Shown here piece by piece: positions 1,914 through 36,592 of a stretch of 64,000 nt of DNA (position 1 is the stretch's first letter; each line of letters begins with the position of its first letter). The notes under the pieces are model-generated. The model was not told where the DNA came from and ran no database searches. It saw only the letters and a program-made list of their open reading frames with translations. This stretch comes from Patescibacteria group bacterium (lineage in GTDB: Bacteria; Patescibacteriota; Patescibacteriia; UBA9934). The stretch spans positions 314,758 to 378,757 of the forward strand of contig JAGORL010000001.1 of NCBI GenBank assembly GCA_018062825.1, written 5' to 3'. The position numbers and the translations under genes were made by a program.

Positions 1914-2366
1914 TTAATCTGCCTGTACAAACACCATCGTTCCTTGATCATCTTGCAAAGTGAGCATGAGTGATCCCTCCTCTGAGATGACGTAGGCAAC
2001 AACGTTGCCAAGTTGCTCGGCGTAGGTTGCTTCTTGTGAGCCTTCGCAGTACATCTTGGTGCTAATAATTTCGCCAAAGCTGAGCGATGCGCCATCCATG
2101 GTGTAGTTGCCGCCCATCGTGTTGCAGTCAGTGCTGCTACCAAAACGACCGTCGGTTTCAAAGGTCAGAACAAAACGCTCTGGCTCGTTTGGTGTAAAGG
2201 CGCCTTCTGCAGCAAGGAGCGTGGTAGTCCATGTCCACGAGGTATCAGTAATAGCGATCATAGAGGTATCCGCTTGCTTCTCATTGTAGATGAAAGCGTT
2301 GAGTGCAAAGAAGCCCAGAAGAACTACCGCAACTACACCAATGAAAACAAGAAATATTTTTTGCAT
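1914..2366 (-). CDS. META-domain (HslJ-like, DUF306) protein with an N-terminal signal anchor.
   Basis: Hydrophobic N-terminus followed by a META-like region (TDGRFGSSTDCNTMGGNYT...). ATG start at 2364-2366; the listed 5'-most start at 2393 is GTG. Confidence 0.55.
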   Translation of the reverse strand: MQKIFLVFIGVVAVVLLGFFALNAFIYNEKQADTSMIAITDTSWTWTTTLLAAEGAFTPNEPERFVLTFETDGRFGSSTDCNTMGGNYTMDGASLSFGEIISTKMYCEGSQEATYAEQLGNVVAYVISEEGSLMLTLQDDQGTMVFVQAD

Positions 2367-2410
2367 AGCGAAAATAAAGAGTACTGCACTCACTATAGTC
2401 TATTAAAGAG

Positions 2411-2446
2411 AAGATCGACACCCCGGGCGCGGGATGTCGATCGTGG
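2411..2446 (-). terminator. Terminator hairpin, copy 1 of a duplicated 31-bp element AAGATCGACACCCCGGGCGCGGGATGTCGAT.
   Basis: GATCGACA/TGTCGATC stem with an inner CCCG/CGGG stem. The minus-strand read is followed by CTTCTCTTTAATA. Identical core recurs at 3197-3227. Confidence 0.65.
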
Positions 2447-2449
2447 TGA

Positions 2450-3067
2450 TCAGGCCTGAACGGCCTGTGCGTGGCTGTCTGCGGGGCGGGAAACCATCGT
2501 GTCCGCCCAGATGATGAACTTCTGGAGCTTGTCGCGCTGATCGGCGACCTCCTCCCGAGATGCGTACCCGAGTACTGGCAGGTATTCTTGCGGACCGACC
2601 AGGATCTGCTTCAGGTTCTCGACCGTATCGCAGATGACAAGGGCTTCTCGCACCTTGTCGATCAGCACGTCGCGCACATTGTCCGTCAGGGGCATGTGCT
2701 GTTGACCGCAGTCCGGGCAGGGCAGCGTGCTCGGGGTCAGACAGAGCTTGTCGCCGAGCTTGAGCAGAGCATCGACCCAGTTCTTCGGCGGGAGCGGATG
2801 GATGTACTCCATGAGTGCCGTGAACGCCTCGTGCGGATCATCGCTGAAGGTGTGGACGCGCATGGCTCGCGGCGCTGCGACCATCTGGTTCGGAACGCCA
2901 TTCGTCACGGTGAACGCTCCGATCACGAGGTCATCCTCGCCGTGAAGGACGGTCCAGTTGCCGTCCTCGAGCTTGGTGCCGATCGGGAGGATGACCGTCC
3001 CTTCCTCGGTGATCTCCACCGTGAGTGAGCGATTGCTGCTCATGATGCGATACGTCGCAAAGCGCAT
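2450..3067 (-). CDS. Hypothetical protein (205 aa), in a GC-rich islet.
   Basis: ATG start with GAGG upstream. ~65% GC against a ~49% background. Has its own terminator. No recognisable family. Confidence 0.5.
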   Translation of the reverse strand: MRFATYRIMSSNRSLTVEITEEGTVILPIGTKLEDGNWTVLHGEDDLVIGAFTVTNGVPNQMVAAPRAMRVHTFSDDPHEAFTALMEYIHPLPPKNWVDALLKLGDKLCLTPSTLPCPDCGQQHMPLTDNVRDVLIDKVREALVICDTVENLKQILVGPQEYLPVLGYASREEVADQRDKLQKFIIWADTMVSRPADSHAQAVQA

Positions 3068-3196
3068 GGGTGTACCTCGTACGTGAAGCTGAAAGCTACT
3101 AAATCAAGCGAACCATTCGCCTAAAACAGCAGTATTTCAACGAGGCAGACTAAACAAAAATCTGAAAAGAGTCAACCTCAACGCCTATAAAAACTA

Positions 3197-3232
3197 AAGA
3201 TCGACACCCCGGGCGCGGGATGTCGATTGTGG
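3197..3232 (-). terminator. Terminator hairpin, copy 2 of the duplicated 31-bp element.
   Basis: Same core as 2411-2441. The minus-strand read is followed by CTTTAGTTTTTATAGG. Confidence 0.65.
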
Positions 3233-3243
3233 CTCGCGGCCTT

Positions 3244-3525
3244 CTAGCCGAGGGCTGCGAGGAAGTCCTCGACCGCCTCGGGGTCGAGCGTGACCTGGAG
3301 CTCCTCCCGCAGCTCGCGGTCGAGGGTGGCGTCGGCGGTCTCGTTCGTGAGGATCGCGAGCTGGGCCTTGCCGCCCTGGACCTCGACCGTGCCGACGCAC
3401 TCGTCGTTGTCGAGGATCTGCCACACCCCGTCTTCGACCGACTGGCCGTGGGGGAACATGGCGGTGGTGCCATGCATCACGATCGTGAGCGTCTGGTCGC
3501 CGAGGGCCGCGAGGAATCCGCGCAT
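3244..3525 (-). CDS. Hypothetical acidic protein (93 aa from the ATG at 3525; the 5'-most start at 3588 is GTG), in a GC-rich islet.
   Basis: GGAGAAG lies 4-5 nt upstream of the ATG at 3525. GC-rich. Followed by terminator copy 2. Confidence 0.45.
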   Translation of the reverse strand: MRGFLAALGDQTLTIVMHGTTAMFPHGQSVEDGVWQILDNDECVGTVEVQGGKAQLAILTNETADATLDRELREELQVTLDPEAVEDFLAALG

Positions 3526-3712
3526 GACTTCTCCTGAAGGGGCGTCGATATGATCGACAGGGGCATCATCTGCGCAAACGTCGATCACCGACGCTAACGC
3601 AAAAGACCCGCTACGATAGCGGAAATACCCAGAAAAGTCAAGCTATTTCTGGAATACTAGCCCCTGTTTACAAAGCGCATCATCGCAGTCTTGCCATGCC
3701 ACAATGCGATTA

Positions 3713-3757
3713 ATGTAGCAATAAGAAGACCCCGTCTGCCTTGCGGCTGACGGGGTC
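3713..3757 (-). terminator. Intrinsic terminator after the beta-propeller gene.
   Basis: GACCCCGTC-(13 nt)-GACGGGGTC 9-bp stem. The minus-strand read is followed by TTCTTATTGC. Confidence 0.6.
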
Positions 3758-3801
3758 AGAGAGATCGGACAACCACGTGAGGTGATCGTCATGTGGTGCG
3801 G

Positions 3802-4971
3802 CTACGGCAGCGGATCGCCGCGGTCGTCCACCCGGATCTCGAAGATGACGAACGGCGACGGGTCCGGCACAGGGGATCCGACGAGCACGTCATCGACAGC
3901 ATGGTTCACCACGTAGGCGCGCTTCTTGTCCGGGTGAAGCGCGATCGTGGACGGCTGCACGAAGGAGACGTTGACGTTCTCCGGCTGAGTGATGCGATCG
4001 ATCTCGTAGGGGTCGAAGTCGCACTCGTTGAGGCCCGAGATGACGCTCACGGAGTTGTCGCCCGCGAGCACCGCGTACAGGTCACCGTTCTGCGCGAACG
4101 CCAGCCCATCGGGCAGGTCATTCAGGCCGTACTCGTACACGATCTCCGGGGTCTCGCCGAGATCGTTCAGTGGCACGCGGTAGATCTTGCCGGTCGCTCC
4201 GGGAGCGCCGGGGAAGGGCACCCCGCCCGTGAACGCGAAGTAAAGGTACTCGCGCTCCGGATCGAGCTTGATGCCGTTCATGCCCAGGCGCCCGCCTCCG
4301 AAGAAGCCGAGCAGCGGGTCCACGATGACCGGCACGGGCTCACCACCACCCGGGGGAACCATGAAGATGATGCCCTGGATGCTGTCCGTCACGTAGAGCT
4401 CGCCCGCCGGGCCGACGACGATCCCGTTCGGGACGGACGGCGGCAGGCCGGGAATGGGCGGCACCTCGATGAGCTGCGGGAAGGGCGTCGACGTGTGCAG
4501 CGACTGGGTCCAGGTGGGCCCGAAGCACGTGTCGACGATCGAGAACTTCACCACACCGAGCTGGGTGCTGTTCACGTACAGGTTGCCATCCGCGTCGAGC
4601 GCGGACTCGCTGAAGGCGTGCTCGAACAGGATGTTCTCGCCGTCGGCCTCGAGCGTGTCGATGAGGTCACCGTCGTTGAGATCGTAGACCCGAACCCAGG
4701 AGGCCGGTAGGCCGGCGGTCGGCGAGGCGGCCGGACCGGTCACGTACAGGAGCTCGCGGTCGTAGTCGACGACCACGCCTTCGGGCCATTCGTAGCCCGC
4801 CGGCATGGTGGCGAAGATCTCCGCCGAGCCGACGTTGCCCTGACCGTTGTTGTGACCACCGCCATGGCCACCACCGTGACCATGACCGTTGTTGTGACCA
4901 CCGGGTGGCCCGCCGTGGGCGAGCGTGGTGGTCGGAATGATGAGTAGAAGCGTGAACAACAGCTGACGCAA
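3802..4971 (-). CDS. Secreted beta-propeller protein (SMP-30/gluconolactonase/LRE-like or NHL-like repeats) with an N-terminal His/Gly-rich tract.
   Basis: Signal peptide MRQLLFTLLLIIPTTTLA. Then HGGPPGGHNNGHGHGGGHGGGHNNG (a putative metal-binding tract). Repeated ...LYVTDS.../...GDLYAV... blade-like motifs. TTG start with AGAGAGG upstream. ~65% GC. Confidence 0.5.
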   Translation of the reverse strand: MRQLLFTLLLIIPTTTLAHGGPPGGHNNGHGHGGGHGGGHNNGQGNVGSAEIFATMPAGYEWPEGVVVDYDRELLYVTGPAASPTAGLPASWVRVYDLNDGDLIDTLEADGENILFEHAFSESALDADGNLYVNSTQLGVVKFSIVDTCFGPTWTQSLHTSTPFPQLIEVPPIPGLPPSVPNGIVVGPAGELYVTDSIQGIIFMVPPGGGEPVPVIVDPLLGFFGGGRLGMNGIKLDPEREYLYFAFTGGVPFPGAPGATGKIYRVPLNDLGETPEIVYEYGLNDLPDGLAFAQNGDLYAVLAGDNSVSVISGLNECDFDPYEIDRITQPENVNVSFVQPSTIALHPDKKRAYVVNHAVDDVLVGSPVPDPSPFVIFEIRVDDRGDPLP

Positions 4972-5062
4972 CTCGAACCTCTCTGAACTAGCATCTATTG
5001 ATGCGCCTCGTTATGAGGCGGCGAATAGTATAGTGTTCAAAAACAAGATAGCCAAACGAGTA

Positions 5063-5590
5063 TTACACACCGGAGCTACTTTCCTTTGAAAGAAGCTGAG
5101 ACTTAATCGCTGATCCCCAGCGATACTGTCCAATCGATCCATCAGCCGGCACAACGCGGTGGCACGGGATAAGAACGGCAATGCGATTAGCGCCAACTGC
5201 GGTACCAACTGCGCGGTATGCGTGCGGCCTGCCAATGTTCTGAGCGATTTGCGCATACGTCCTGCGCTCACCGTACGGAATATGCAGAAGCTCCAACCAA
5301 ACGCTTTTTTGAAAAGCGGTACCGGTAGTAAAAAGGGGAATGCTGCGTTGATCGCCTTTATTCTTCAGTGCATCAAAGGCCACGAGGTGAAGGCGGTGCT
5401 CGCTCGCCACGAGAGCGGACTCGGGAAATAATAAAGATAATTCTCGGGTATGGTCGATATCAGGAATCTGGAAGGCAAGAAAGACAATCGCTCGATCGCT
5501 TGAAGCAATAAAAACCTCACCCTGTGCGGATGAGTAGCTTGCGTAGTACACACGATCAATCACCTCGTGATCATTAAGAAAAGAAGACAT
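5063..5590 (-). CDS. ogt: Methylated-DNA-[protein]-cysteine S-methyltransferase (O6-alkylguanine-DNA alkyltransferase).
   Basis: Active-site motif IPCHRVV (PCHR). The C-terminal HTH-like DNA-binding region is conserved. Start at the ATG at 5588-5590 (MSSFL); the listed 5617 start is TTG. Confidence 0.8.
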   Translation of the reverse strand: MSSFLNDHEVIDRVYYASYSSAQGEVFIASSDRAIVFLAFQIPDIDHTRELSLLFPESALVASEHRLHLVAFDALKNKGDQRSIPLFTTGTAFQKSVWLELLHIPYGERRTYAQIAQNIGRPHAYRAVGTAVGANRIAVLIPCHRVVPADGSIGQYRWGSAIKSQLLSKESSSGV

Positions 5591-6308: not shown

Positions 6309-6677
6309 TTATTTCTGCTTTGCTTTGTGCTTAGCAATGTTTTGCCGAATGCAGTAACGAGTAATGCGCTTGATAAGGCCAATCGGCAGCGGCTTATCGA
6401 GCGGAAACTGGATACTCCCCTTAGCTGTCTTGTACTTGGTGAGCGAACTTTTGAAGGCTACGAGTGCTGCACTACCTGGATACAGACCGATATGACCTTT
6501 GTACCCGGCGTAGTGAATGAGGTTACCGTGAAGCTTGAAAGTTGGAATGCCGTAACTGATGACCTCGGTCGCCGAAGGCGCAAGTGTACGGATGGTGACG
6601 CGCATTTTTTTCAAGAGGCGCTGAACAAGAATAGGATGCGCTGCGATGTATGTTTCAACACTCGCCACTGAGCGCAT
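6309..6677 (-). CDS. DUF1801 (YdhG-like) domain protein.
   Basis: Family-typical N-terminus (VETYIAAHP...LLKKMR..I...AP.ATEVISYGIPTFKLHGNLIHYAGYKGHIGLYP). Confidence 0.6.
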   Translation of the reverse strand: MRSVASVETYIAAHPILVQRLLKKMRVTIRTLAPSATEVISYGIPTFKLHGNLIHYAGYKGHIGLYPGSAALVAFKSSLTKYKTAKGSIQFPLDKPLPIGLIKRITRYCIRQNIAKHKAKQK

Positions 6678-6795
6678 ATGACTATTTCTTCTTCTTATCG
6701 GTCTTCTTTGGTTTCTTAACGTTCTTGCGTGCGTTCATGCCTTTGGCCATACATTGAGATAAATAATATAGTTGAAGTATAGCATTATGAGTGAA

Positions 6796-7635
6796 CTAAG
6801 CGTGATGTGCAAGATCGGCTTCGAGTAAATCAAGAATCTTCCCGTCAACGCTTTCATCAAACTTGCGAGCAAAAAGATTGTGACTACTACGCAGATACGT
6901 TGCATCTTGCAAGGTAAACGTGCGTGGTCGAAGTTTGATCGTGCCGTCTGGTACCCAGTCGATTGCCCGTAGGTCATCATTCACAAGCTGTGATTGATAC
7001 GACGTATTCATGATGACCGTTTGAAAGAAGCTTTCATCGGCAATGAAAGTATGGCGATAGAAGCGCTTGAAGCGTGTAACCTCAGGACTCGTTGCAAGAA
7101 ACTCGCAAAAACTTCGCGTTAAAATCATCCACTGATTACCAATATACGGCGTTGCTCTACGTAAGAACTTGCGCGTAAACGGCAGCTGCACAATACGCTG
7201 AGCAAACTCCAGATAATAATTTTGAAAACGACCAACAGTACCTGGACGTACCTTCTGTTGATCGATAACTTTCATGAAATCAGTGCCAGCGTGTTTGGTG
7301 AGGAAGGTGCGAATCTGGCGTTGTGATTTAAGTGGAAAATCCTGACCGCTTAAGTTAATAAAGAACTGCCAGCGTGGACTCATGGCAAGAAGTGCGGCAA
7401 TGCCTCTAAGCTGTGCATCAACAAGACTGTAACCACCCCACAAAGCGTTTTTACTTTCAATAAGTTGAGCATTCGGAAACGATGCTAAAAACGCCCCGAT
7501 CTCAGTACGCAGTGACTGGTCGGCGCGTTTATCAGTATGCACCACATAGAAGTTATCTGGGTGGTAAATAGCCTTAAAAAGACGTTTGAACTGTTTAGGG
7601 TAGCGGTGTACTAGGAGGAAATAGGCAATCATCAA
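6796..7635 (-). CDS. Glycosyltransferase family 14 (core-2/I-branching beta-1,6-GlcNAc-transferase-like).
   Basis: Matches the Branch-domain signature: YHPDNFYVVHTDK...LSGQDFPLKS... Confidence 0.6.
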   Translation of the reverse strand: MMIAYFLLVHRYPKQFKRLFKAIYHPDNFYVVHTDKRADQSLRTEIGAFLASFPNAQLIESKNALWGGYSLVDAQLRGIAALLAMSPRWQFFINLSGQDFPLKSQRQIRTFLTKHAGTDFMKVIDQQKVRPGTVGRFQNYYLEFAQRIVQLPFTRKFLRRATPYIGNQWMILTRSFCEFLATSPEVTRFKRFYRHTFIADESFFQTVIMNTSYQSQLVNDDLRAIDWVPDGTIKLRPRTFTLQDATYLRSSHNLFARKFDESVDGKILDLLEADLAHHA

Positions 7636-7667
7636 GTCACCGTACGCTTAGTTAGTGATAATAGCAA

Positions 7668-7706
7668 AGAAGTAAAATTCAAAACCCTGCCACGTGGCGG
7701 CAGGGT
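7668..7706 (-). terminator. Intrinsic terminator after gene 7715-8113.
   Basis: Minus-strand read: CCCTGCC-gccacgt-GGCAGGG followed by TTTTGAATTTTAC. Confidence 0.7.
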
Positions 7707-7714
7707 TGAGGCGA

Positions 7715-8113
7715 TTAGTGCACAAGGACCGCTGAGAGTTCGATCCGTAGGGTGGTGTAAACGCCGAACGGTAGGTCGAGCAAGGTGACGCCACCATGAG
7801 CGACGCCTCGATGCGTTGCATACTGGATGTACGAAGTGCCGTGCAGCCGGATGCGCCGCTCGTTGCGTTCGATGACACGATGGAGTGCAAGGGCTTCTCG
7901 CAGCTCAGACGCGTGGCCGCGCCAGTTGGTGATCACCTGTCCGCCGAGCCCGGTCGACACAACGCGTCGCTGTAGCGCCGCTTCATTCCGGTCAGGACTC
8001 AGGTAGAAGTCGAGTGCCCAGGGACTGTGATGGGGGAGCATGGGACCGATGAAGTCCGGGAAGGAGTAGTTGTATGCGGCCAGGAGACCGTCGTTGAAAG
8101 GACGTGGTGGCAT
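7715..8113 (-). CDS. Hypothetical protein (132 aa) in a GC-rich monocistronic islet.
   Basis: ATG start with AGGTG upstream. ~62% GC. Bracketed by its own terminator and by the cupin-gene terminator upstream. No family recognised. Confidence 0.5.
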   Translation of the reverse strand: MPPRPFNDGLLAAYNYSFPDFIGPMLPHHSPWALDFYLSPDRNEAALQRRVVSTGLGGQVITNWRGHASELREALALHRVIERNERRIRLHGTSYIQYATHRGVAHGGVTLLDLPFGVYTTLRIELSAVLVH

Positions 8114-8154
8114 GATTACACCTATGGTGCTCGCAGGAGCGAGGAGTAAAGATA

Positions 8155-8190
8155 ACGAAAAAACGACCGAACGTCAATCGTTCGGTCGTT
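8155..8190 (-). terminator. Intrinsic terminator after the cupin gene.
   Basis: Minus-strand read: ACGACCGAACG-attga-CGTTCGGTCGT followed by TTTTTTCG. Confidence 0.7.
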
Positions 8191-8211
8191 TAATGGTCAG
8201 TGTGTGTAACG

Positions 8212-8631
8212 TTACTCCGTAATGCTGCCGTCAAAGTGCTCTTCGTCGGCTTCTGCCTCAGCTTTTGTAGCATGTACCACGCCATCACGGTGATGCGGTG
8301 GCATGTAGAGCGTATAGAGCTTCATGCTCACACTCCCGGTATTAATAATGTTGTGCTTCACGCCAACAGGAACAATGATCACGCTGCCATCAGCAAGATC
8401 ATGCTCTACGCCGTTCAATACCGCTTTACCTGTACCTTGTTCAACGCGCAGAAATTGATCGACGTCATTATGCACCTCTTCTCCAATCTCTTCATGTGGT
8501 AAAAGTGCCATAAGTACCAATTGGCACTTCTTGTCGGTATACAAAACCTTGCGAAAGTTGGTATTAGCCAGAGCAAGTTCTTCAATATTAGCTACGTAGC
8601 CTTGCATAAGATATTTGTATTTAGCGCACAT
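8212..8631 (-). CDS. Cupin-domain protein.
   Basis: Cupin_2-like core with conserved His and Glu residues (HPHEEIGEEVH...G...H). Confidence 0.55.
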   Translation of the reverse strand: MCAKYKYLMQGYVANIEELALANTNFRKVLYTDKKCQLVLMALLPHEEIGEEVHNDVDQFLRVEQGTGKAVLNGVEHDLADGSVIIVPVGVKHNIINTGSVSMKLYTLYMPPHHRDGVVHATKAEAEADEEHFDGSITE

Positions 8632-8640
8632 TTTGTAGCA

Positions 8641-9321
8641 TTAGTACTCTGTCGGTATCGGTGTGGTTGCTGATCCTACGGTGTACTCTCCCCAAACACG
8701 TTTTGATCGTTCTTCAAAGGCAGCGCGAGCAGCAGGGAGTTTGGCAACAAGGATGGCGGGCAAAATCTTGTAAATCTGCTCAAGCACCTCCGGAGCTACT
8801 CCTTGCATGCTCCAAGAAAATCCTTCGGCATACATTGCGGCCACCTCATCATCAGTAATAGGAGGAAAGCCAGCGTTGTCGCGAAGTGCTGGTGTGATTT
8901 GAGCCTCCTCAAACGCTAAGTGCTCATCGATCAACGTTTTAAGTCCATGAAGCACTGCTTCTGCCTGCTCAGGGTGTGCTAGATCAGCAAATGCTGCATC
9001 CCCGCGTTCAAGTACCGGATCAATGTGATGATGCTGTTCGGTCAGTTGATCAAGTGCTGCGGCAAGATCAGCATGCTTACTACGAATATCAGGAAAGATA
9101 TTCGTATCTTCCATAGTGTGATGACCGTGGAGCGCTTGGCGATAGCTCGTATTCCACTCATTGCGTACATGCTCAGCGCGTGATGTATCGCCAGCCTTAA
9201 TCTGCTCCACCGCACGAATGAATCGCGCAATATCACGACGAAACGCATGGTGAGAACTAAGAAGCAGAGTAGCCATGGAGGCCGTACCGTCGTCATTTAA
9301 GAAGTTGGGAGCTAAAGGCAT
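8641..9321 (-). CDS. Hemerythrin-like (HHE cation-binding) domain protein.
   Basis: Motifs HH..EDTNIFP and further H...H pairs typical of the hemerythrin/HHE fold. Confidence 0.55.
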   Translation of the reverse strand: MPLAPNFLNDDGTASMATLLLSSHHAFRRDIARFIRAVEQIKAGDTSRAEHVRNEWNTSYRQALHGHHTMEDTNIFPDIRSKHADLAAALDQLTEQHHHIDPVLERGDAAFADLAHPEQAEAVLHGLKTLIDEHLAFEEAQITPALRDNAGFPPITDDEVAAMYAEGFSWSMQGVAPEVLEQIYKILPAILVAKLPAARAAFEERSKRVWGEYTVGSATTPIPTEY

Positions 9322-9334
9322 ATGCTGATCAAAT

Positions 9335-9712
9335 TTACTCTTTACGTAAAACCTTCTCCATCACTTTTCCTCTTGCCAGTTCATCGATCAACTTATCAAG
9401 GTAACGAATCTCACGCATAGTCGGCTCCTTAATATCCTCTACCCGAACGCCGCACACAACACCAGTAACTAAGCTGCGTAGGGGATTCATGCGCGGAGCT
9501 TTGGCAAAGAACGTTTCAAAGTCCGTTTGCTTCTTGATTTGAGACTCAAGTCCTTTCTGGGTATAGCCGGTGAGCCAACGAATAACCTGATCGACCTCAT
9601 CTTTGGTTCGGCCTTTGCGTTCTACCTTTGTAATATAAAGAGGATAGACGCTCGCAAAGCTTGTGGTGTAGATGCGATGTTTTTGTGGTGAACCGTTCTG
9701 ATCATTGCGCAT
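9335..9712 (-). CDS. DUF2200-family protein.
   Basis: Family-typical N-terminus ([37 protein letters not shown]). Confidence 0.55.
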
Positions 9713-13133: not shown

Positions 13134-13730
13134 TTAGCGGGATGGCTTCCTACGCTTAATACCAGTTCTGTGTGGCTGCTTACCGTCGAATAATAGTTTA
13201 AGGGAATCTACGACCGAACCTGCTCCTAGGACAATAATGAGAACGCCGTCTATCTTTAGCTTTTCCTTCAAATCCCAGAAAAGCTCCTCAATCAGCTTTA
13301 CGCGTTTCACTAAATAGTCGGGATCAACCATGATCGGTGTATTTACTGGCCAAGAGTCTTTTTCAATAGTGTTGTGAGCTGTATTGAAATGTCCCACCCT
13401 GTTGTACCGAGCCGTCAAAACCTCTTTCGTAGTTGCTTTAATTTTCAGTATCTTCGCGTGATAGTGAAGACGCTGTTTCTCGGAAGGCAACAATCCGCAA
13501 AGAGTAAAAAGCGACGAGGTTTGATCATCTTGATCGAGAAGGTTACTCAATACGTTTACCGCGTCTCTGCTATAAACGTCTGCCATAGATAAGAGGAAAG
13601 CTCCGTGTTCCTTGGCGATCTTTTCTTTTTCATAGATATAGCTCAATACCCCAATGGTTTCTTTGAGTCTATTCAGGGAATCGTTGATGTGATCGGTTAT
13701 ATCCTTTGGACGGAGCTTAGCCTTCGGCAT
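13134..13730 (-). CDS. Hypothetical protein (198 aa), island cargo; contains a possible HEPN-like Rx5H motif (RYNRVGH).
   Basis: AT-rich ORF divergent from 13780-14910. No family recognised. The HEPN suggestion rests on the short motif only. Confidence 0.45.
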   Translation of the reverse strand: MPKAKLRPKDITDHINDSLNRLKETIGVLSYIYEKEKIAKEHGAFLLSMADVYSRDAVNVLSNLLDQDDQTSSLFTLCGLLPSEKQRLHYHAKILKIKATTKEVLTARYNRVGHFNTAHNTIEKDSWPVNTPIMVDPDYLVKRVKLIEELFWDLKEKLKIDGVLIIVLGAGSVVDSLKLLFDGKQPHRTGIKRRKPSR

Positions 13731-13779
13731 ATCTTCTTACTTTACTATTCTTTACTATATCGGGTAAAGTACGCTCATT

Positions 13780-14910
13780 GTGAGCGAAAATGATTCAGAG
13801 ATTAACTTCTTCATTGAAGATTCAAAGCTCTACACTCTTTGGGTTTATTCACGACCCGATTTTTATCCAAGAGAATATTTTGGAATTGGCGAAATCACTC
13901 CTGCACAATACGACCATAAGGCAATTTTTAACTTTCTTAGAATAAGGCTGAAGATGGCCGATGTTCAGTTCAAAAGCTTTAATGCCTACGGCGATAACGA
14001 CTACTCAAAGATGGCTCTCCCACCCACGGATGCTACGCTTAAGGGATGCGATGATAAGCAGAAAAAAGCTATCCTAGCGGCCTGCAAGAAGTTTCGATCT
14101 GAACCATTCGGGTTAAAAGAGATCGACCTTCTACTTCCTTACTATTACAGCTTGTTTGATTATTTTTACTGGCGACCGTCCTTAACATCTACAGAACTGG
14201 CGAAAATTAAAACTCACATAAACGAGTACATTGATTTGTTTCTGAATACGGAACTCTTCGTTTACAACAGAAACTATTTTATTTTCGAAAAACAAAAACA
14301 GGTATTCATTGAACGATTAAGAAAGATGTCCGCTATCGAAAATTTTGGCTCGAATTTTATTGTTAGCGAAACCGCTAAGGGATATGAAAAGACCGAATCA
14401 CAAAACGGTTTCCTCTTCATTCACACGCTATATGCCCTGCAGAAGCTAAACTATATTAGTGTAATACGATTGTGGCATGAACGAACGGATACAGGACACA
14501 CTTTCCATGCAAACATTGTAATTTTTGATACCTTAATCGAGGAAGTAAATAACAGCTACAAGAAGGACAATCCTAAAAACGTTATAGATAAATTTGATGA
14601 AAAGAAAGGCGTTCTAAAGTTCGCTGAGCAGGAGATAGAGCTTTCAAAGAAGGGCAAGCAGACTGATGCGGTTCTTTTAATGAAAACTCTCCTCAAAACT
14701 GAAGGCGACGACTGGAAACACAACGACGAAATATTAACTGATTGGGGCTATAACGACGATGATCAGAAGGGAGTAGCGAAAAACAAGGTCTATTATGCAG
14801 GCCAAAAGATAAATAATGCCGTGGAACTCAAAACAAAGATAGGCGATTTCATTGAGTGCAATACTTCAAAGGCTCGAATCAATCCCAAATATAGAAAAGT
14901 TGATGAATAA
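13780..14910 (+). CDS. Hypothetical protein (376 aa), island cargo.
   Basis: AT-rich ORF followed by a terminator at 14954-14982. No family recognised. Confidence 0.5.
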   Translation: MSENDSEINFFIEDSKLYTLWVYSRPDFYPREYFGIGEITPAQYDHKAIFNFLRIRLKMADVQFKSFNAYGDNDYSKMALPPTDATLKGCDDKQKKAILAACKKFRSEPFGLKEIDLLLPYYYSLFDYFYWRPSLTSTELAKIKTHINEYIDLFLNTELFVYNRNYFIFEKQKQVFIERLRKMSAIENFGSNFIVSETAKGYEKTESQNGFLFIHTLYALQKLNYISVIRLWHERTDTGHTFHANIVIFDTLIEEVNNSYKKDNPKNVIDKFDEKKGVLKFAEQEIELSKKGKQTDAVLLMKTLLKTEGDDWKHNDEILTDWGYNDDDQKGVAKNKVYYAGQKINNAVELKTKIGDFIECNTSKARINPKYRKVDE

Positions 14911-14953
14911 TATATAAACGTCCATCAACATTTACAAATGCCCTGACATTTAC

Positions 14954-14982
14954 CCTGTGGTCAAACCTCAGGGTTTTTGTTA
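14954..14982 (+). terminator. Intrinsic terminator CCCTG-tggtcaaacct-CAGGG followed by TTTTTGTT.
   Basis: 5-bp stem with a T-tract, 44 nt after the stop of gene 13780-14910. Confidence 0.55.
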
Positions 14983-15121
14983 TGCAGCATTTAACTCAAC
15001 AAAGAGAGCAAGACGTAATATCCGAATCAAAGGATGTTTCTCTCGAAGACGAGCGCAATCTCGTTGATTTCTTTGCATTGCTTTTAGCCGTTGATAAACG
15101 AGTAAATAACAAAGCGAATTT

Positions 15122-16255
15122 ATGATTGATACCGTCTGCCTCCTTATTCCCCTGAACCATGTCGTCTTTCTCGACAAAGCCAATAAAGAGATTCCTGATT
15201 GGGACTTACATTCTAAGACTGAGAACTATCAAAAGTTCGTCAGAAACCCTACAAAAAAGGATAAGGAAAGTGGCCTATATTTTCCACGGATTACACTCTA
15301 TCAAAGACGTTACCAGCGTGAAATCAATGTAAAAATAGAGTTCTCAGCTCCAAAGCTACTGTACGAAAATAATCTTGAAGAGCTAAAGGATTCCGACTTC
15401 GATAAGGTAATTGATCTATTACAGGATCGGCTCAAGCGCATGGGATTAAGGGTCTTCCGTAAGTTCTTAGTTGAAGCCGACGTTTCTTCGATCCATTACT
15501 CCAAAAATATCCTGCTTTCGGATGGCTATACGGCTAGTTATCTGATAGCAGAAATGAGCAAGATTGATCTAAGAAAGAGCTTCGATTTTGCCCGTGCTCG
15601 CTACATCAATGACGGTCAAAGCCTGTGCGCCCATACCTCATCTCACGAGCTAGTCATATACGACAAGGTAGCCGATTTGAATAAGGGCAAGAAAAGGGCA
15701 ATTGACCGAGATCGAACCCCGTATCAAACGAGTCTATTCGCCGACTTGAAGAACGCGAAGAAGCTGATAGAAATCTTGCGGTTTGAAATTCGGCTCGGTA
15801 AAAAAGAGAAAATTAAGAGCCTACTCCTGAAATTAGGTCATCAAAAAAAGGTTGCCTTTGCCGAGATGTTCAATACAAGGCTTAGCCAGCAGGTAGTAAC
15901 CCACTATTGGGAAAAGATTATCAGCGCAAAAACCAACGGTCTATTCATTATTCCACCAACACATAAAGACCTGTTACGAGAGATCTACCGAGTTCAACCA
16001 GAGGTCAAACCTAGCCGCGCGTTCTATCTAGTCGGCTTATCTGCATTAGCAAAGGACGGAAACGGTATACGAGAGCTGAGGAGTATCCTTACAGGCAAGA
16101 CAAACGCAAGGACTTGGTATCGGATAATCAAGGATCATCGTGATTTTTCCAAGGCTATTTCAGCAAGCAAAGTCAGAGATTGGGTTTATCAGATAGATCA
16201 ATCCCTAAAGAAGTATGAGCCACTAACACGTTCCACATACGAAATTGCTGTGTAA
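15122..16255 (+). CDS. Rep_trans-family rolling-circle replication initiation protein.
   Basis: Signature blocks ...SSHELVIYDK... (the RIYDK-like block) and ...EILRFEIRLGKK... (the R.E.EL block), as in pT181 RepC and ICE/phage Rep_trans proteins. Confidence 0.5.
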   Translation: MIDTVCLLIPLNHVVFLDKANKEIPDWDLHSKTENYQKFVRNPTKKDKESGLYFPRITLYQRRYQREINVKIEFSAPKLLYENNLEELKDSDFDKVIDLLQDRLKRMGLRVFRKFLVEADVSSIHYSKNILLSDGYTASYLIAEMSKIDLRKSFDFARARYINDGQSLCAHTSSHELVIYDKVADLNKGKKRAIDRDRTPYQTSLFADLKNAKKLIEILRFEIRLGKKEKIKSLLLKLGHQKKVAFAEMFNTRLSQQVVTHYWEKIISAKTNGLFIIPPTHKDLLREIYRVQPEVKPSRAFYLVGLSALAKDGNGIRELRSILTGKTNARTWYRIIKDHRDFSKAISASKVRDWVYQIDQSLKKYEPLTRSTYEIAV

Positions 16256-16285
16256 AGAAAAGTAAAGTATAATTATAACTACAAT

Positions 16286-16468
16286 ATGCACACGGAAGAA
16301 AGTAAATTCTATACATCTCAAGAACTTTCAAAAGTCTTGAAAGTCAATATCATGACCATTTATCGCTATATTAAGGCTGGCAAGTTACAGGCTTATAAAA
16401 TAGGCAAAGAATATCGAATTGCTGAAACTGAGTTTACAAGGTTTTTGAATGAAGCTAGCACCGAATAA
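16286..16468 (+). CDS. xis: Excisionase-family helix-turn-helix DNA-binding protein (HTH_17 / Xis-like).
   Basis: Classic pattern over 60 aa: YTSQELSKVLKVNIMTIYRYIKAGKLQAYKIGKEYRIAETEFTRFL. Confidence 0.7.
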   Translation: MHTEESKFYTSQELSKVLKVNIMTIYRYIKAGKLQAYKIGKEYRIAETEFTRFLNEASTE

Positions 16469-16471
16469 TCT

Positions 16472-17443
16472 ATGGAGGAAAAACTACGAGCAAAAAACAA
16501 CAGAACAACCTTCGTTAGAAGTGAAGAAGTCTTGGAATTGAAGAAAAAGATAGTATCAGGAGATCAGCTGACAAGCGATATTTATAACAAGACGATCTGG
16601 GGGAGGCTTGAAGACGTTACTGTGAAAATCCCTGAGGGGGTTGTTGATCTCCTATTCATCGATCCGCCGTACAACCTAAATAAGGACTTCGGCAATAATA
16701 AATTCCGTGAACTTTCAGGCGATGACTATCAAGTTGTTTTTGAAAAATGGCTACTATCAATAATGCACACCTTAAAGAAGAACGCCTCGGTGTATGTTTG
16801 TTGCGATTGGAAAAGTTCCCCAATGATCTTTAATGTTTTAGATAAGCATCTCAAAGTACGAAATCGCATTACTTGGGAACGCGAAAAAGGGAGGGGGGCT
16901 TTGAGTAATTGGAAGAATTGCTCAGAGGATATTTGGTTCGCTACAGTCTCTGATGATTATAAATTTAACGTTGAGGCCGTAAAACTAAAGAAAAAAGTCA
17001 TCGCACCATACAAAGAAAACGGTCTAGCAAAAGACTGGGCAGAAGAAAGTGACGGAAAATTTAGATTAACTCATCCTTCGAATCTTTGGACGGACATCAC
17101 TATTCCATTTTGGTCGATGCCAGAAAATACTGACCATCCTACACAAAAACCAGAAAAATTAGTCGCAAAAATACTGCTTGCTTCAACACATAAGGATGAT
17201 GTTGTACTCGATCCCTTTCTGGGATCAGGTACGACATCCGTTGTTGCAAAAAAATTAGGAAGGAAATATATCGGCATTGAAATGAACGAAGAATATTGCT
17301 GTCTCGCAGAAAAACGTATTGCTATGGTTGATAAGAATCCGACTATACAAGGGTATCTAGATGGGGTCTTCTGGGAAAGAAATTCTCTAATTGAACAAAA
17401 AGATTCCAACGGAAGCACGGCCTTTAATGCAACGCTTATATGA
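16472..17443 (+). CDS. Type II DNA methyltransferase, beta class (motif IV DPPY precedes motif I); probably an N6-adenine MTase, N4-cytosine not excluded.
   Basis: DLLFIDPPYN (motif IV) comes first, with DPFLGSGTT (motif I, FxGxG) near the C-terminus. This is the circularly permuted beta order of PF01555-type methylases. Confidence 0.8.
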   Translation: MEEKLRAKNNRTTFVRSEEVLELKKKIVSGDQLTSDIYNKTIWGRLEDVTVKIPEGVVDLLFIDPPYNLNKDFGNNKFRELSGDDYQVVFEKWLLSIMHTLKKNASVYVCCDWKSSPMIFNVLDKHLKVRNRITWEREKGRGALSNWKNCSEDIWFATVSDDYKFNVEAVKLKKKVIAPYKENGLAKDWAEESDGKFRLTHPSNLWTDITIPFWSMPENTDHPTQKPEKLVAKILLASTHKDDVVLDPFLGSGTTSVVAKKLGRKYIGIEMNEEYCCLAEKRIAMVDKNPTIQGYLDGVFWERNSLIEQKDSNGSTAFNATLI

Positions 17444-18603
17444 TCGATGATGAAGTGTTAGATTTGATAGCCTTTCTAAAGGCCAAAGATGGCATAGGCA
17501 ATAAAGCTTCTCTAATGAAGGCTGTGTTGGATCAATTTAGATTAACGAAAGATCGATCTGTTTACTACTCTGAACATCTTGCTATTCGTTTTAGCTCATC
17601 GGGATCAACGAGTTTTTCTAACACCGTACTCTCCCTATCAAATCTCCAGAAATTCGACGAACTTCCATTCTTGGTGTGTCTCGTCACTCCAAATACAAAT
17701 GTTATTTACCTAGCAAACTCAACATTCCTTATAAAAATTAGTCACAGTTCGCAACAATTACGGATCGACAATATCCGTGGAAGCTTCAACGGTTCAGATA
17801 TTTGCAAAGTATTTAATGACCTACCGAACTCACCCGAAAACTTTGAAAAGCTATTTGCCATTCATGAAGAATTGGGCTTTGCTGAGAATCTTCCCCGTCT
17901 CGTTGAAGCGACGACTGGTATTGTTCCTTCAGGGAAGAAGTTTGATGTTTCGAACGAAGGAAAAAAGATGATTTTATCAGCTCCCGAAAGAGCGGTCGAG
18001 TTCATCAACTCAAGTGAATACATCGAGTTAAAGACCCATCTAGACGAGATGGTTGCACGTTACAAAGATGAAATCCTGATTGCAGGATTCATTGAAAACG
18101 TAAATATACGAGGAAGAATAATCGAATACCTTATCGCAGGCGAAGACGAAGAATTACGAGCTACACTAGTTAGTGAACTACGCAAGGAAGGTAGCAAGGT
18201 CTCACGCTTCGCAACGAAAAACGACTTAGGCGATTATGTTCGCATTTTTGACAAATTTCATACCGCAACAGATGTTAAGACAAAAATCATGGTCTTAAAA
18301 TCAAATCCAAAAGCCTACAACATCGATAAAATTCTGCATTTTCTTACGCATGAAAAAAGTGTTTTCATGTTTTATTTCATTGGAATTGAGCCTAACAAGA
18401 TCGTCGCACAAGTGCTGGTTTCTGTGTTCCAAAAAGACCTACTCAGGTCAACCATTCTCTTGAAACATTGGGCTGGCAGAAACTCACGAGGTGTTACTCA
18501 ATTCGAAGGTGAAACTATCCATAAACTAATCCTCTCATCAAATAATGATATCGACCTTAAGGAAAGTAAAAAATTCCTCAGAGAGTTGATTGAGCTGGTT
18601 TGA
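17440..18603 (+). CDS. Putative cognate Type II restriction endonuclease (387 aa, no recognisable motif).
   Basis: The start overlaps the MTase stop (ATGA), which suggests co-transcription. Its size and position fit an R subunit. The sequence itself gives no family assignment. Confidence 0.4.
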   Translation: MIDDEVLDLIAFLKAKDGIGNKASLMKAVLDQFRLTKDRSVYYSEHLAIRFSSSGSTSFSNTVLSLSNLQKFDELPFLVCLVTPNTNVIYLANSTFLIKISHSSQQLRIDNIRGSFNGSDICKVFNDLPNSPENFEKLFAIHEELGFAENLPRLVEATTGIVPSGKKFDVSNEGKKMILSAPERAVEFINSSEYIELKTHLDEMVARYKDEILIAGFIENVNIRGRIIEYLIAGEDEELRATLVSELRKEGSKVSRFATKNDLGDYVRIFDKFHTATDVKTKIMVLKSNPKAYNIDKILHFLTHEKSVFMFYFIGIEPNKIVAQVLVSVFQKDLLRSTILLKHWAGRNSRGVTQFEGETIHKLILSSNNDIDLKESKKFLRELIELV

Positions 18604-18616
18604 ATTGGTCGTCCTT

Positions 18617-20175
18617 ATGAAAGCCGTAATTCTTGCTCGGGTTTCAACTGAAGAGCAGAAGGATGCAGGAAACTCTCTTCCTGCACAGATTGAGCGTATT
18701 CAATCTTACTGCCAAAGAAAAGGATTCGCCGTAGCAGAGGTATTTAGCTTTGATGAAAGCGCATATAAAACTAAACGTGATGAGTTCGATAAGATTTTAG
18801 AGTTCCTAGAAAAGACCACAGAAAAGATTGCAGTTTGTTTCGATAAAGTTGATAGGCTCTCACGCAACGTTTTTGATAAACGTGTTTCCACGCTCTACGA
18901 AAAGGCAGTCAACGATCAGATTGAGCTTCACTTTGTCTCAGACGGACAGATCATCAATAATCAAATGTCGGCCGTAGAAAAGTTTCAGTTCGGCATGAGC
19001 TTGGGATTGGCTAAATACTATTCAGATGCTATCAGCGATAACGTAGTACGGGCATTTGAACAAAAAAGACGTGATGGTGAAATTACTGGTCGCTGTCGGA
19101 TCGGCTACATCAATGCCCTTGACCCAATGGGCAATAAAACTGTCTCCCCCGATCCTGACAGATCGCACTTGGTAATAAAGATTTTCGAGATGTACGGTAC
19201 AGGCAATCACTCAATGAAGACTATTCTTGAAGACCTTACCAAAGCTGGGTTGCGAAGTAGGGATGGTTTTAAGCTCTCGAAAAGCAGTATTGAGAACATC
19301 CTACGGGAACCTTTTTATCACGGGATCGCTCGATCCAAGAAATATAATCAAGACTATCCGCACAAGTACGAACGGTTGATCAGTAAAGAGCTTTTTGACC
19401 GTTGCCAAAAAATCAGACTAACCAGAAAGAAGGAGCCATATAAAGCTCTCTCTAAAGATTTCATTTTCAAAGGCCTACTTCGTTGCCAAAACTGCAATTG
19501 CACGATGACCCCTGAAATCAAAAAGGGACGCTTTATTTACTATTCCTGTACCAACTCCAAGGGACAATGCAAGCGGGTCTATGTGCCAGAGAATCAGCTC
19601 CTAAAGCCCGTATACGACGTTCTGAGCCGTTTGTCTGGTATCTCAGAAGGAATACAGAACCTTCTCGTTACAGAGCTTCGTAAGACCACAGAAGCCGAGG
19701 TAGCCTTTCATCAGGCTCAGCTTGGACGTATTCGAAATGAGCAGGATCAGTTTACTAAGCGAAAGGACGCTTTGCTCGACTACCTTCTCGACCAGAGTAT
19801 TACTAAGGAATTACTAAGGATCAGTATGACAAGAAACTGCAAGAGATCATGGACAGGCTTCAGACCCTCAGCCTTGAATTAGAAGAACATTCACGGGCTG
19901 ACTATGATTATCAAACTACAGTAGCTACGGTACTTTCCCTTGCTCGTCGGGCAAAGGATATTTTCGATAGTTCTGAAAACCACGAAAAGAGAGCCTTTAT
20001 AAACTATCTCATTCAGAACCCAACCGTAGCAGGTAAGGAACTTGTCTTTAACCTCAGAAAGCCTTTTGATTTAGTGCTAAATCTTGCAGATGAACAAAAA
20101 AAGACGGTCAACGTTTCCGCTGATCGTCCTTCTTGGCTCGGGGGGTGGGGATCGAACCCACGGCCAATTGGTTAA
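18617..20175 (+). pseudogene. Large serine recombinase (resolvase/invertase N-domain plus recombinase and zinc-ribbon domains), frameshifted by an 11-bp tandem duplication at 19799-19820. The 3' end overlaps tRNA-Asn.
   Basis: N-terminus AVILARVSTEEQ (catalytic Ser). Central recombinase domain and a Cys-rich motif (CQNCNCTM...C). The reading frame switches to the +2 frame (ORF 19849-20175) exactly at the duplicated ATTACTAAGGA. Deleting one copy restores ...LDQSITKDQYDKKLQEIMDRLQTL... Confidence 0.75.
19799..19820 (+). repeat. Exact 11-bp tandem duplication (ATTACTAAGGA x2) that frameshifts the serine recombinase.
   Basis: Direct reading of the sequence: tATTACTAAGGAATTACTAAGGAtcag. Confidence 0.9.
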
Positions 20176-20208
20176 CAGCCAACTGCTCTGCCGCTGAGCT
20201 ACCCCCGA
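20134..20208 (-). tRNA. tRNA-Asn (anticodon GUU), 75 nt, with CCA encoded.
   Basis: Minus-strand read: UCGGGGG-UA-GCUC-AGCGGCA-GAGC-A-GUUGG-CUGUUAA-CCAAU-UGGCC-GUGGG-UUCGAUC-CCCAC-CCCCCGA-G-CCA. All stems pair. U1-A72 and G73 are as in bacterial tRNA-Asn. Confidence 0.9.
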
Positions 20209-20320
20209 ATATATTGGGTTGAATTGAACGGGGAAATAATACCCACATCCTAAAAAAATGACAAGTCGGTCCGCTATGGGCATGTGGGCAACGGATATAT
20301 GAAGAATGTCCATTATTTCA

Positions 20321-20349
20321 TTGACAAAATCTCAAAAATAGGGTATATT
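20321..20349 (+). promoter_or_regulatory. Consensus sigma70 promoter: TTGACA, 17-nt spacer, TATATT.
   Basis: Perfect -35 hexamer at 20321-20326 and -10 at 20344-20349. An RBS, GAGAGG, precedes the ATG at 20390. Confidence 0.6.
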
Positions 20350-20389
20350 CGTAACTCGCACTTTCGCGAGGATAGTTGAGAGGTACGCC

Positions 20390-20767
20390 ATGAGCAGCAG
20401 CCCTGCACTCCTGCCAGTCGCAAGCGACAAGAGCGGCGACGAACAGTCGGGAGTCACGACTCTCGACTTCCTCCTGAGCATCGACGGCACGAGCGCCGGC
20501 GTTCGTAGGCGTTACGAGAAGGAAGGATTCGGAAGCATCGTGACCACCTGGACGGGCTCCCTCGAAGAGTTCAGTCGGGCGTTCCTCACCGCTGTCAACG
20601 TGGACACCAAGGAGGTGCACATCATCCTCCAGCGCTGCACGTCACAGTACAAGCCGGGAACGATCGAGGGGCGCAGGATGGTCGGCGAAGCCACGTTCAT
20701 CATGTCCAACCGCATGTTCAACGAGGTCTACGACCGCGTCTGCCCGCCTCCCGAGGTCGCACACTGA
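20390..20767 (+). CDS. Hypothetical protein (125 aa) in a GC-rich islet, located across tRNA-Asn from the AT-rich island.
   Basis: Strong promoter, RBS and terminator. ~60% GC. No family recognised. Confidence 0.55.
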   Translation: MSSSPALLPVASDKSGDEQSGVTTLDFLLSIDGTSAGVRRRYEKEGFGSIVTTWTGSLEEFSRAFLTAVNVDTKEVHIILQRCTSQYKPGTIEGRRMVGEATFIMSNRMFNEVYDRVCPPPEVAH

Positions 20768-20784
20768 CGCACAACGCAGAGTCT

Positions 20785-20814
20785 GAGCCGCGCCCGGCCC
20801 AGGCTCTTTTGTTT
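20785..20814. terminator. Bidirectional terminator GAGCC-gcgcccggccca-GGCTC followed by TTTTGTTT.
   Basis: Lies between the convergent genes 20390-20767 (+) and 20813-21340 (-). Confidence 0.6.
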
Positions 20815-22087: not shown

Positions 22088-22120
22088 GAGATCCCTCCCT
22101 CGGCCGTAGCCCGGCCACGG
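22088..22120. repeat. REP-like 33-bp hairpin element, copy 1 (TCCCCTCGGCCGTAGCCCGGCCACGGGCGAGGC).
   Basis: ~10-bp imperfect stem CCTCGGCCGT/ACGGGCGAGG. A near-identical copy is at 36593-36625. Confidence 0.55.
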
Positions 22121-22183
22121 GCGAGGCGGCTGTGCCTCGGGATGACAGATACGGGAGAGTCGTGCATGATATTGATAATAGCT

Positions 22184-32024: not shown

Positions 32025-32057
32025 AGCTTTAATCTTTTAACTTTAATCTTGAATCAC

Positions 32058-33830: not shown

Positions 33831-33936
33831 GATGGGGGAGTGTAGCAAGATCTTTACAAAGAGCCAAAAAAACATTAGTATACTGAGTTAAATCGCCTAC
33901 AATCCCTGTTGGCTGATTTGAACACTGGAGGAATCA

Positions 33937-34466: not shown

Positions 34467-34493
34467 TTGCATTGCCCGCGCCCGGGAGATGCC

Positions 34494-34530: not shown

Positions 34531-34585
34531 ATCGTGCACTTTACTCTTTTAACGTTACTCTTTAATCTACCCGCGGAGGTGCCCC

Positions 34586-36585: not shown

Positions 36586-36592
36586 CTCCCCT

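Follow-up and report, generated by a model that had tools for sequence, protein, structure and literature searches.

GC-rich single-gene islets in a Patescibacteria chromosome: resident cassettes whose high coding GC appears to be maintained

A chromosomal stretch of 64,000 nucleotides (nt) from a Patescibacteria group bacterium, a member of the candidate phyla radiation with a tiny genome (assembly GCA_018062825.1, contig JAGORL010000001.1, positions 314,758 to 378,757; hereafter the window) has a mean guanine plus cytosine (GC) content of 49.7% and carries several short GC-rich islets, among them a unit at 7668-8190 that contains a 132-codon gene, p132. Our analysis indicated that the islet genes are resident, restricted to the lineage and fast-evolving, that they are organised as self-sufficient cassettes, and that their high coding GC looks maintained and not like the fading signature of an import, because synonymous sites turn over but remain G or C. 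The reading favoured as a whole, to which we give a probability of about one half, is that such cassettes are probably foreign in ultimate origin but not recent imports, and that their coding GC is maintained, most likely by recombination-linked GC-biased fixation. The cassettes would have come in the first place from high-GC bacteria, a plausible source, and afterwards Patescibacteria would have inherited them and exchanged them with one another. Biased fixation of G and C, tied to recombination or conversion of the exchanged cassettes, would then keep coding GC high while the synonymous sites exchange one strong base for the other.

When islets were called from 200-nt windows of at least 58% GC, six long ones stood out (Table 1). 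An earlier note on this DNA had described short stretches of 58-66% GC in a background of about 49%, and this was confirmed: the six islets have 58-67% GC, hold about ten genes and thus show the atypical base composition that is one mark of a classical genomic island. Their neighbours are usual chromosomal genes, encoding an ABC-F ATPase, leucyl aminopeptidase, a PcrA/UvrD-type helicase, MreB, MreC, MGMT and a MerR/TipAS regulator. The GC content at third codon positions (GC3) was 0.69-0.87 in the islet genes, against 0.504 +/- 0.061 in 48 background genes (z = 3.1-6.1). The 80 nt located 5' of each islet gene have background GC (0.39-0.55), indicating that the GC excess is a property of the coding sequence only. 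No enriched word was found in the islets by k-mer analysis, which included words resembling uptake signals. Two further genes that the earlier note had listed as GC-rich did not stand up equally well, since p280 is borderline and p244 is hardly an islet in its composition (Table 1).

As read from its sequence, the focal stretch is monocistronic and complete; on the minus strand it has a promoter-like site, a leader hairpin, a Shine-Dalgarno motif, a 132-codon open reading frame (ORF) and an intrinsic terminator. Its 5' boundary is the terminator of the upstream cupin gene, and the -35 hexamer of the p132 promoter candidate sits within that terminator hairpin. In GenBank, where the contig has a length of 406 kb, the ORF carries the label "hypothetical protein". 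Over the focal islet, three Logan assemblies of separate runs were 100% identical to the window, two of them spanning both junctions, which indicates that it is not a chimera or an assembly artefact. Compared with strain L026 (a JGI contig, 97.6% nt identity), which has p132 in the same slot, 11 codons of the gene differ, with nine synonymous changes, one stop-codon change and one replacement; this ratio of synonymous to replacement changes suggests a genuine gene under purifying selection. By these comparisons p132 is a constrained protein-coding gene, and it is an orphan: a search of 5.8e9 clustered proteins returned only p132 itself, no match was found in Pfam, PHROGs, PADLOC, NCBIfam or a PDB profile search, a scan of IMG/VR gave no relatives, and megablast of 6500-9500 against phage records gave no match. 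An AlphaFold model of the protein had a predicted local distance difference test score (pLDDT) of 38.7 and was not used.

An additional gene was observed next to p132 in L026 (L026:80-421, corresponding to window position 8191/8212). It encodes a 104-amino-acid (aa) membrane protein with three helices, has 47.6% GC, and is inserted after the stop codon of the cupin gene and before the terminator hairpin, on the cupin side of p132. As it has no counterpart in the window, the slot beside p132 shows a strain-level gene indel.

The sole detectable relative of p132 is p125, which lies 12 kb away and is a diverged paralogue (32% identity over 59 aa, E = 3e-7); its leader hairpin has the same stem. 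No clue to the function of either protein was obtained from Pfam (up to E = 5), NCBIfam or the PDB profile search. The "perfect" TTGACA-17-TATATT promoter that the earlier note placed before p125 is present, although it matches the consensus at 11 of 12 positions. Other islet genes are also paralogous within the genome. The p114 and p205 proteins have a common N-terminal domain (30% protein identity), and a 36-nt stretch that includes the p114 terminator hairpin (3197-3232) is 97% identical to its counterpart at the p205 terminator. The p280 and p244 proteins are 44% identical, and their terminator hairpins differ by compensatory changes.

Islet genes kept their places in the close relatives of the window. 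In L024 (about 92% nt identity) the gene order MGMT-NHL-p114 is kept, NHL being the beta-propeller gene of the first islet (Table 1), and in L025 (81% nt identity across the helicase, MreB and MreC genes) both p244 (45% aa identity) and p77 occupy the same slots. The earlier note had proposed asking whether the islet genes are absent or variable in related strains; wherever this was applied (L024, L025, L026 and the syntenic pair L005/L021 described below) the genes were retained in the same slots. The p77 proteins of the window and L025 are 51% identical in the local BLASTP alignment and 56% over the full length, with in-frame indels, and the small gene still has 65-68% GC; the neighbouring proteins of L025 are 77-97% identical to those of the window. 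The propeller genes of the window and L024 differ by 18 synonymous and eight replacement codons and by a 42-nt in-frame deletion in a His/Gly repeat. Divergence from L024 amounts to 2.5% in this gene and to about 10% in both flanks, a difference that could reflect either recent allele exchange or reduced synonymous freedom. The adjacent p114 is far less conservative than the propeller, with 11 replacement and five synonymous differences in 54 codons (L024:1762-2040) and a ratio of replacement to synonymous rates (dN/dS) of roughly 0.7; its GC3 in L024 is 0.97.

The protein homologue surveys covered p132, p255 and the propeller, and left aside p125, p185, p205, p114, p280 and the HAD gene. The propeller is the family that can be followed furthest. 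Its AlphaFold model is all-beta (pLDDT 84), Foldseek matched it with probability 1.0 to SMP-30/gluconolactonase, DFPase, NHL and Pizza6 propellers, and the Pfam NHL profile scored 26.3 bits (cut-off 20). After the predicted signal peptide, at residues 19-42, the protein has a His/Gly-rich repeat (HGGPPGGHNNGHGHGGGHGGGHNN, 4833-4903 on the minus strand) that is length-polymorphic and could be a metal-binding or linker segment. It was also observed that public gene calls on the Logan contig have a 305-aa antisense ORF (3793-4710, plus strand) in place of the propeller gene, which explains why the collection of proteins lacks the true one at 100% identity; GC-rich islets readily give rise to such wrong-strand calls.

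The propeller clade was defined as homologues with at least 50% identity, and the genomic context was read for 13 contigs from about ten distinct lineages. In 12 of the 13, the propeller is a single-gene islet of 65-69% GC (GC3 0.85-0.94) in Patescibacteria-like flanks of 45-54% GC. The remaining contig (L027, carrying homologue P0007) has a uniform 75% GC and a propeller GC3 of 0.96, and P0007 is 55-63% identical to every Patescibacteria copy, nested among them in an unresolved, star-like tree. This homologue makes a foreign high-GC source plausible, and more distant propeller homologues were found in other high-GC genomes. A scan of IMG/VR with the propeller alignment gave no relatives. The four-fold degenerate sites of different copies are near saturation (0.42-0.64 identical vs 0.38 by chance), with about 30% G<->C swaps. 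C (0.45) and G (0.41) are about equally enriched at these sites, which makes translational selection unlikely, and GC is also raised at first and second codon positions.

At the nine Patescibacteria propeller loci examined, the 100 nt upstream have 0.39-0.46 GC and the ends of the coding sequence 0.56-0.74, so that the GC-rich part ends at the start codon, whereas the surroundings of the high-GC copy have 0.68-0.76 GC. These loci have in common AT-rich TTGAC-like and TATAAC/TATACT hexamers, a 5' leader hairpin directly after the -10 hexamer, and then a Shine-Dalgarno motif. Besides the hairpin of the window, leaders were studied in L004, L005, L009, L013, L021, L022, L023 and L024. Their stems differ in sequence yet still pair through compensatory changes, and in eight of nine loci the hairpin, folded sequence by sequence, was more stable than shuffled sequences. 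The hairpin may be an mRNA-stabilising or regulatory element. The high-GC homologue does not have this AT-rich promoter and leader region, and its presence in the Patescibacteria copies indicates that the whole propeller cassette had one origin within Patescibacteria and was later inherited or moved, the coding part remaining GC-rich all the while. The cassette lies in differing neighbourhoods in different Patescibacteria.

The persistence of the GC-rich state could be assessed in L005 and L021, between which a run of 11 genes is syntenic. The housekeeping genes of this pair encode proteins of 84-91% identity, and their four-fold sites are near saturation (0.35-0.47 identical vs 0.25 by chance). 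In both genomes the propeller gene lies in the same slot, with 77% protein identity and GC3 of 0.89 and 0.85. Its synonymous differences comprise 27% G<->C changes, compared with 11-16% in the neighbouring genes, and 18% strong<->weak changes, compared with 20-47% in the neighbours (37-47% apart from a short sigma-factor gene). Two more genes with elevated GC3 hold their slots in this pair, although their products are only 28% and 50% identical by BLASTP (30% and 48% over the full length). Across five related loci, genes lacking a Pfam match had higher GC3 than genes with one (median 0.63 vs 0.51, p = 6e-4).

These observations bear on the possibility that the islets are ancient imports undergoing ordinary slow amelioration, with no maintaining force, the islet GC3 values of 0.61-0.87 reflecting different ages. 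The graded series of GC3 values fits such a history, as does the fact that the Patescibacteria propellers (0.85-0.94) lie slightly under the high-GC homologue (0.96), with the other islets at 0.69-0.83. However, a simple relaxation calculation for L005/L021 gave an expected propeller GC3 of about 0.73 and 0.80 while the neighbours approached saturation, below the values observed. Moreover, the propeller differences in this pair are mainly between G and C and not from strong to weak bases, and all of the approximately ten lineages still have GC3 of at least 0.85. We therefore regard unassisted slow amelioration as quite improbable.

A second alternative, which is the one the earlier note adopted, is recent and repeated horizontal acquisition, each islet being a fresh, unameliorated import from high-GC bacteria such as epibiont hosts. 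That note described a mosaic of horizontally acquired cassettes. Part of this description stands: the units are self-contained, most of the genes are orphan or lineage-restricted, the propeller has differing neighbourhoods, and a foreign origin is plausible. Recent import would also account for the strong compositional contrast, for the divergence of those islet genes that are not orphans and for a homologue nested in the clade on a 75%-GC contig; furthermore, islands are abundant and horizontal transfer frequent in Patescibacteria, including transfer from one Patescibacteria to another (PMC12455944). Recent independent acquisition, in contrast, is not supported. No close donor was found among the 5.8e9 proteins: the best high-GC relative of the propeller is no closer to the Patescibacteria copies than these are to each other, and p132 and p255 have no homologues there. 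None of the nine Patescibacteria propeller loci has a GC-rich flank, all have the AT-rich leader region, islet positions are conserved in L024, L025, L026 and L005/L021, several islet genes have paralogues within the genome, and no ameliorated intermediates were seen among the approximately ten lineages.

Evidence of mobility was not detected either. Scans of the islet genes against Pfam, PHROGs and PADLOC revealed no integrase, transposase or recombinase in or near the islets; PHROGs gave nothing useful, and the PADLOC search for defence genes gave nothing beyond one marginal match to p114. Flanking direct repeats, attachment (att) sites and target-site repeats were searched for at five islets (2300-5120, 7560-8300, 20210-20900, 33800-35480 and 42100-43800; the islets at 48096-48938 and 55-56 kb were left out) and none was found, nor was any shared flanking motif of the kind that the earlier note had suggested looking for. 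The p125 gene does lie beside tRNA-Asn, on the 5' side of the tRNA, and has no repeat there. On this evidence, recent repeated import is unlikely.

The third alternative is that the islets are artefactual or non-coding, being assembly chimeras, structured RNA genes or ORFs that arise by chance where GC is high. The window does come from a metagenome-assembled genome, and GC-rich DNA yields long chance ORFs, as illustrated by the antisense ORF called over the propeller. Nevertheless, the identity of independent assemblies, the synonymous to replacement counts of 9:1 for p132 and 18:8 for the propeller, the in-frame indels between the 77-aa gene and its L025 counterpart, and the confident fold of the propeller all speak for coding genes, and the search for structured RNA described below was negative. 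For the genes tested, a set that does not include p105, this reading is refuted, and for the islets as a whole we consider its likelihood negligible.

With regard to the force that would maintain coding GC in the resident cassettes, we favour GC-biased fixation tied to recombination or conversion, because near-identical terminators stand behind diverged paralogues (p114 and p205), because the propeller is so little diverged from L024, and because recombination is known to be linked to GC: in most bacterial species the recombination rate and GC are positively correlated (PMC11879095). An alternative force, equally compatible with the data, is selection on synonymous sites. Several points weigh against the favoured reading. 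For the core genes of bacteria, the study that reported the correlation prefers selection to biased gene conversion as the explanation (PMC11879095). The position of the 75%-GC clade member in a star-like tree is compatible with several independent imports from unsampled high-GC donors, and the GC3 differences listed above would fit slow amelioration too. The case against amelioration depends for the most part on a single syntenic pair and on a simple expectation of the Jukes-Cantor kind, and the deep evidence comes from one family, the propeller. The relatives that share slots of the window are near ones (81-98% nt identity), which makes the synteny test shallow for the focal gene; a search for cluster variants of its flanking proteins, at 90% identity or more, gave none located on usable contigs. 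Finally, GC3 rises as protein identity falls (rho = -0.50, p = 0.03, 19 ortholog pairs), a modest trend.

The earlier note also stated that each islet has its own promoter and intrinsic terminator. A GC-rich hairpin followed by a T-run was found at the 3' end of p132, p205, p114, p185, p255, the HAD gene, p280 and p244 (Table 1), and terminator-like sites are enriched in the window (31, 34 and 35 found vs about 21 +/- 4-5 expected from shuffles). The strongest of these sites come after islet genes; they are not specific to islets, however, as ordinary genes carry intrinsic terminators too. Promoter-like matches at 9-11 of 12 positions were found where expected (8177-8149, 20321-20349, 5055-5027 and 3641-3613), but their count over the window equals the shuffle expectation, and the assignment of a promoter to each islet is therefore one of position.

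The remaining islets contain genes of several kinds (Table 1). The p255 protein is an orphan except for generic TPR matches. The HAD-IIB-like phosphatase is very divergent, scoring 32.4 bits with Pfam Hydrolase_3 (cut-off 20.9) and 29.2 bits with TIGR01484 (HAD-SF-IIB), which is under the cut-off of 41.8; one PDB match was found (E = 3e-5), and the DIDST motif I is present. The stretch had been listed as 42199-43214, with a small ORF downstream of the gene, but the gene is at 42369-43214 and the small ORF, p105, is upstream. The stretch at 55980-56330, earlier named as an islet, is indeed GC-rich and contains the 77-aa gene p77, which is conserved in a relative. A structured RNA was considered for 55941-56500 and rejected, as no Rfam family matched, the fold z-scores at 55960-56330 were -0.15 and -0.98, and the conserved 77-aa ORF lies there.

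Table 1. Islets, genes and regulatory features of the window (positions are those of the window).
Feature	Position	Strand	Description
Islet	2381-5020		62% GC
Islet (focal)	7681-8140		61% GC
Islet	20341-20860		59% GC
Islet	33901-35380		60% GC
Islet	42161-43680		61% GC
Islet	55941-56500		61% GC
Cupin gene terminator	8161-8191	-	intrinsic; 13-bp stem then T-run; 5' boundary of focal unit
p132 promoter candidate	8149-8177	-	sigma-70-like TTGACG-17-TATCTT; 9/12 positions, consensus match only
p132 leader hairpin	8130-8143	-	CTCGC-TCCT-GCGAG; between -10 and Shine-Dalgarno
p132 Shine-Dalgarno	8119-8123	-	AGGTG, 5 bases from ATG; read from the sequence
p132	7715-8113	-	132 aa; 61% GC; GC3 0.69; ATG at 8113, stop at 7715
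p132 terminator	7683-7707	-	intrinsic; 11-bp stem then T-run
p205	2450-3067	-	orphan; GC3 0.81; terminator 2413-2442
p114	3244-3588	-	GC3 0.87; likely true start 3525; terminator 3200-3227
NHL propeller gene	3802-4971	-	secreted six-bladed beta-propeller (predicted); signal peptide; His/Gly-rich linker; 66% GC; GC3 0.87
NHL leader hairpin	5003-5022	-	5' leader; homologous to leaders of other Patescibacteria NHL cassettes
NHL promoter candidate	5027-5055	-	TTGGCT-17-TATACT
p125 promoter candidate	20321-20349	+	TTGACA-17-TATATT
p125 leader hairpin	20355-20370	+	CTCGC-ACTTTC-GCGAG
p125	20390-20767	+	125 aa; 62% GC; GC3 0.83; distant paralogue of p132
p185	33909-34466	+	single-pass membrane protein; GC3 0.76; terminator 34494-34521
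p255	34586-35353	+	CxxC pairs and TPR-like helices; GC3 0.75; terminator 35356-35381
HAD-IIB-like phosphatase	42369-43214	-	DIDST motif; GC3 0.75; terminator 42190-42214
p105 (putative ORF)	43373-43690	-	GC-rich; GC3 0.74
p280	48096-48938	+	57% GC; GC3 0.74; terminator 48957-48984
p244	55027-55761	+	52% GC; GC3 0.61; terminator 55818-55845
p77	56028-56261	+	77 aa; proline-rich; GTG start; 68% GC; terminator hairpin 56294-56319
YTTTAAY arrays	32027-32046, 34539-34565, 37452-37472, 49052-49085, 49465-49493, 51963-51997		reverse orientation near 55860

Other features were observed in the window. An AT-rich block (13561-19882, 39% GC) contains an N6/N4 DNA methylase gene (16472-17443), several unknown ORFs and a gene for a large serine recombinase (18590-19882), the sole recombinase of the window. 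The block abuts the 3' end of tRNA-Asn (20134-20208, minus strand), where no att repeat of at least 12 nt was found, and it has the appearance of a classical integrated mobile element that may be a restriction-modification island. Between genes, YTTTAAY words recur in arrays of three or four, spaced by about 8-10 nt (e.g. CTTTAATCTTTTAACTTTAATC) and often located just past a terminator; two of these arrays form part of longer 66-nt repeats with 83% identity (37419-37484 and 49432-49497). A giant ORF of 2183 aa with normal GC (24461-31012, minus strand) has as its sole Pfam match a bacterial TSP3 repeat near the C-terminus, and its product is probably a large surface protein. A GC-rich sequence of 31 nt (CCCTCGGCCGTAGCCCGGCCACGGGCGAGGC) is present in two copies 14.5 kb apart (22097-22127 and 36589-36619, 97% identical).

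The islets were compared with known systems. With horizontally acquired islands, as described by the Lawrence-Ochman amelioration model and by IslandViewer-type predictions in Patescibacteria (PMC12455944), they share a sharp compositional contrast, orphan or patchy genes, a self-contained organisation and a plausible foreign source. They differ in being GC-rich, the bona fide mobile island of this window being AT-rich; in being single coding sequences and not multi-gene blocks; in showing no integrase, tRNA-att structure or flanking repeats at the scanned islets; and in that the atypical composition of the propeller outlasts near-saturating synonymous divergence. Integron gene cassettes are likewise single-ORF units bounded by imperfect inverted repeats. 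The islets, however, are dispersed, have no attC site, integrase or array and have each a candidate promoter of their own, and their hairpins, like those of intrinsic terminators, carry T-runs and compensatory changes.

Flexible islands of the replacement type and hypervariable accessory slots offer another parallel, since the L005/L021 slot holds diverged versions of its genes (the propeller at 77% and its neighbour at 28% identity by BLASTP, 30% full-length) between flanks of 84-91%, and a gene indel between strains lies beside p132. Flexible islands are usually multi-gene cell-surface clusters with no known GC-rich signature, whereas each unit here is one gene with its own candidate promoter, leader and terminator. 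As to recombination-associated GC enrichment in bacteria, the hypothesis of GC-biased gene conversion was reportedly put forward by Lassalle et al. in 2015. The islets resemble such enrichment in the about equal gain of G and C at synonymous sites, in the raised first and second codon positions and in the hints of gene flow or conversion. They depart from it in that the published effects are modest, genome-wide and found in core genes, while here single accessory genes gain 35-40 GC3 points; moreover, the GC boundaries of the islets fall at start and stop codons, and recombination is here an inferred process.

A more general proposal, which we offer tentatively and hold to be doubtful though possible, is that such genes form a separate compositional compartment: accessory, fast-evolving, self-contained cassettes that would be held at GC3 of about 0.7-0.95 in Patescibacteria genomes of about 50% GC by GC-biased fixation, whether through conversion during exchange or through synonymous selection, a process whose reach would end at the start and stop codons. 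No description of persistent GC-rich single-gene islets was found in the literature searched. If the proposal were true, the compartment would stand as the sharpest bacterial example of GC-biased evolution at the scale of genes. Acquired and orphan bacterial genes are usually AT-rich, and the compartment would be a counter-example both to the rule that orphan genes are AT-rich and to the equation of atypical composition with recent import.

The distinction has consequences for the way in which these genomes are interpreted. Island predictors and the amelioration model take an atypical composition for a sign of recent transfer, and here they would mislabel stable resident genes; in practice, gene callers also mis-call islet regions. 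If the GC-rich state is truly maintained, the islets would make a compact natural system in which to weigh biased gene conversion against selection on GC content, a matter of open debate, with affected and unaffected sequences side by side in one small genome. The orphan, fast-evolving islet proteins, at least one of which is predicted to be secreted, may plausibly take part in the interaction of epibiotic Patescibacteria with their hosts, and the GC signature could be a cheap means of finding such candidates.

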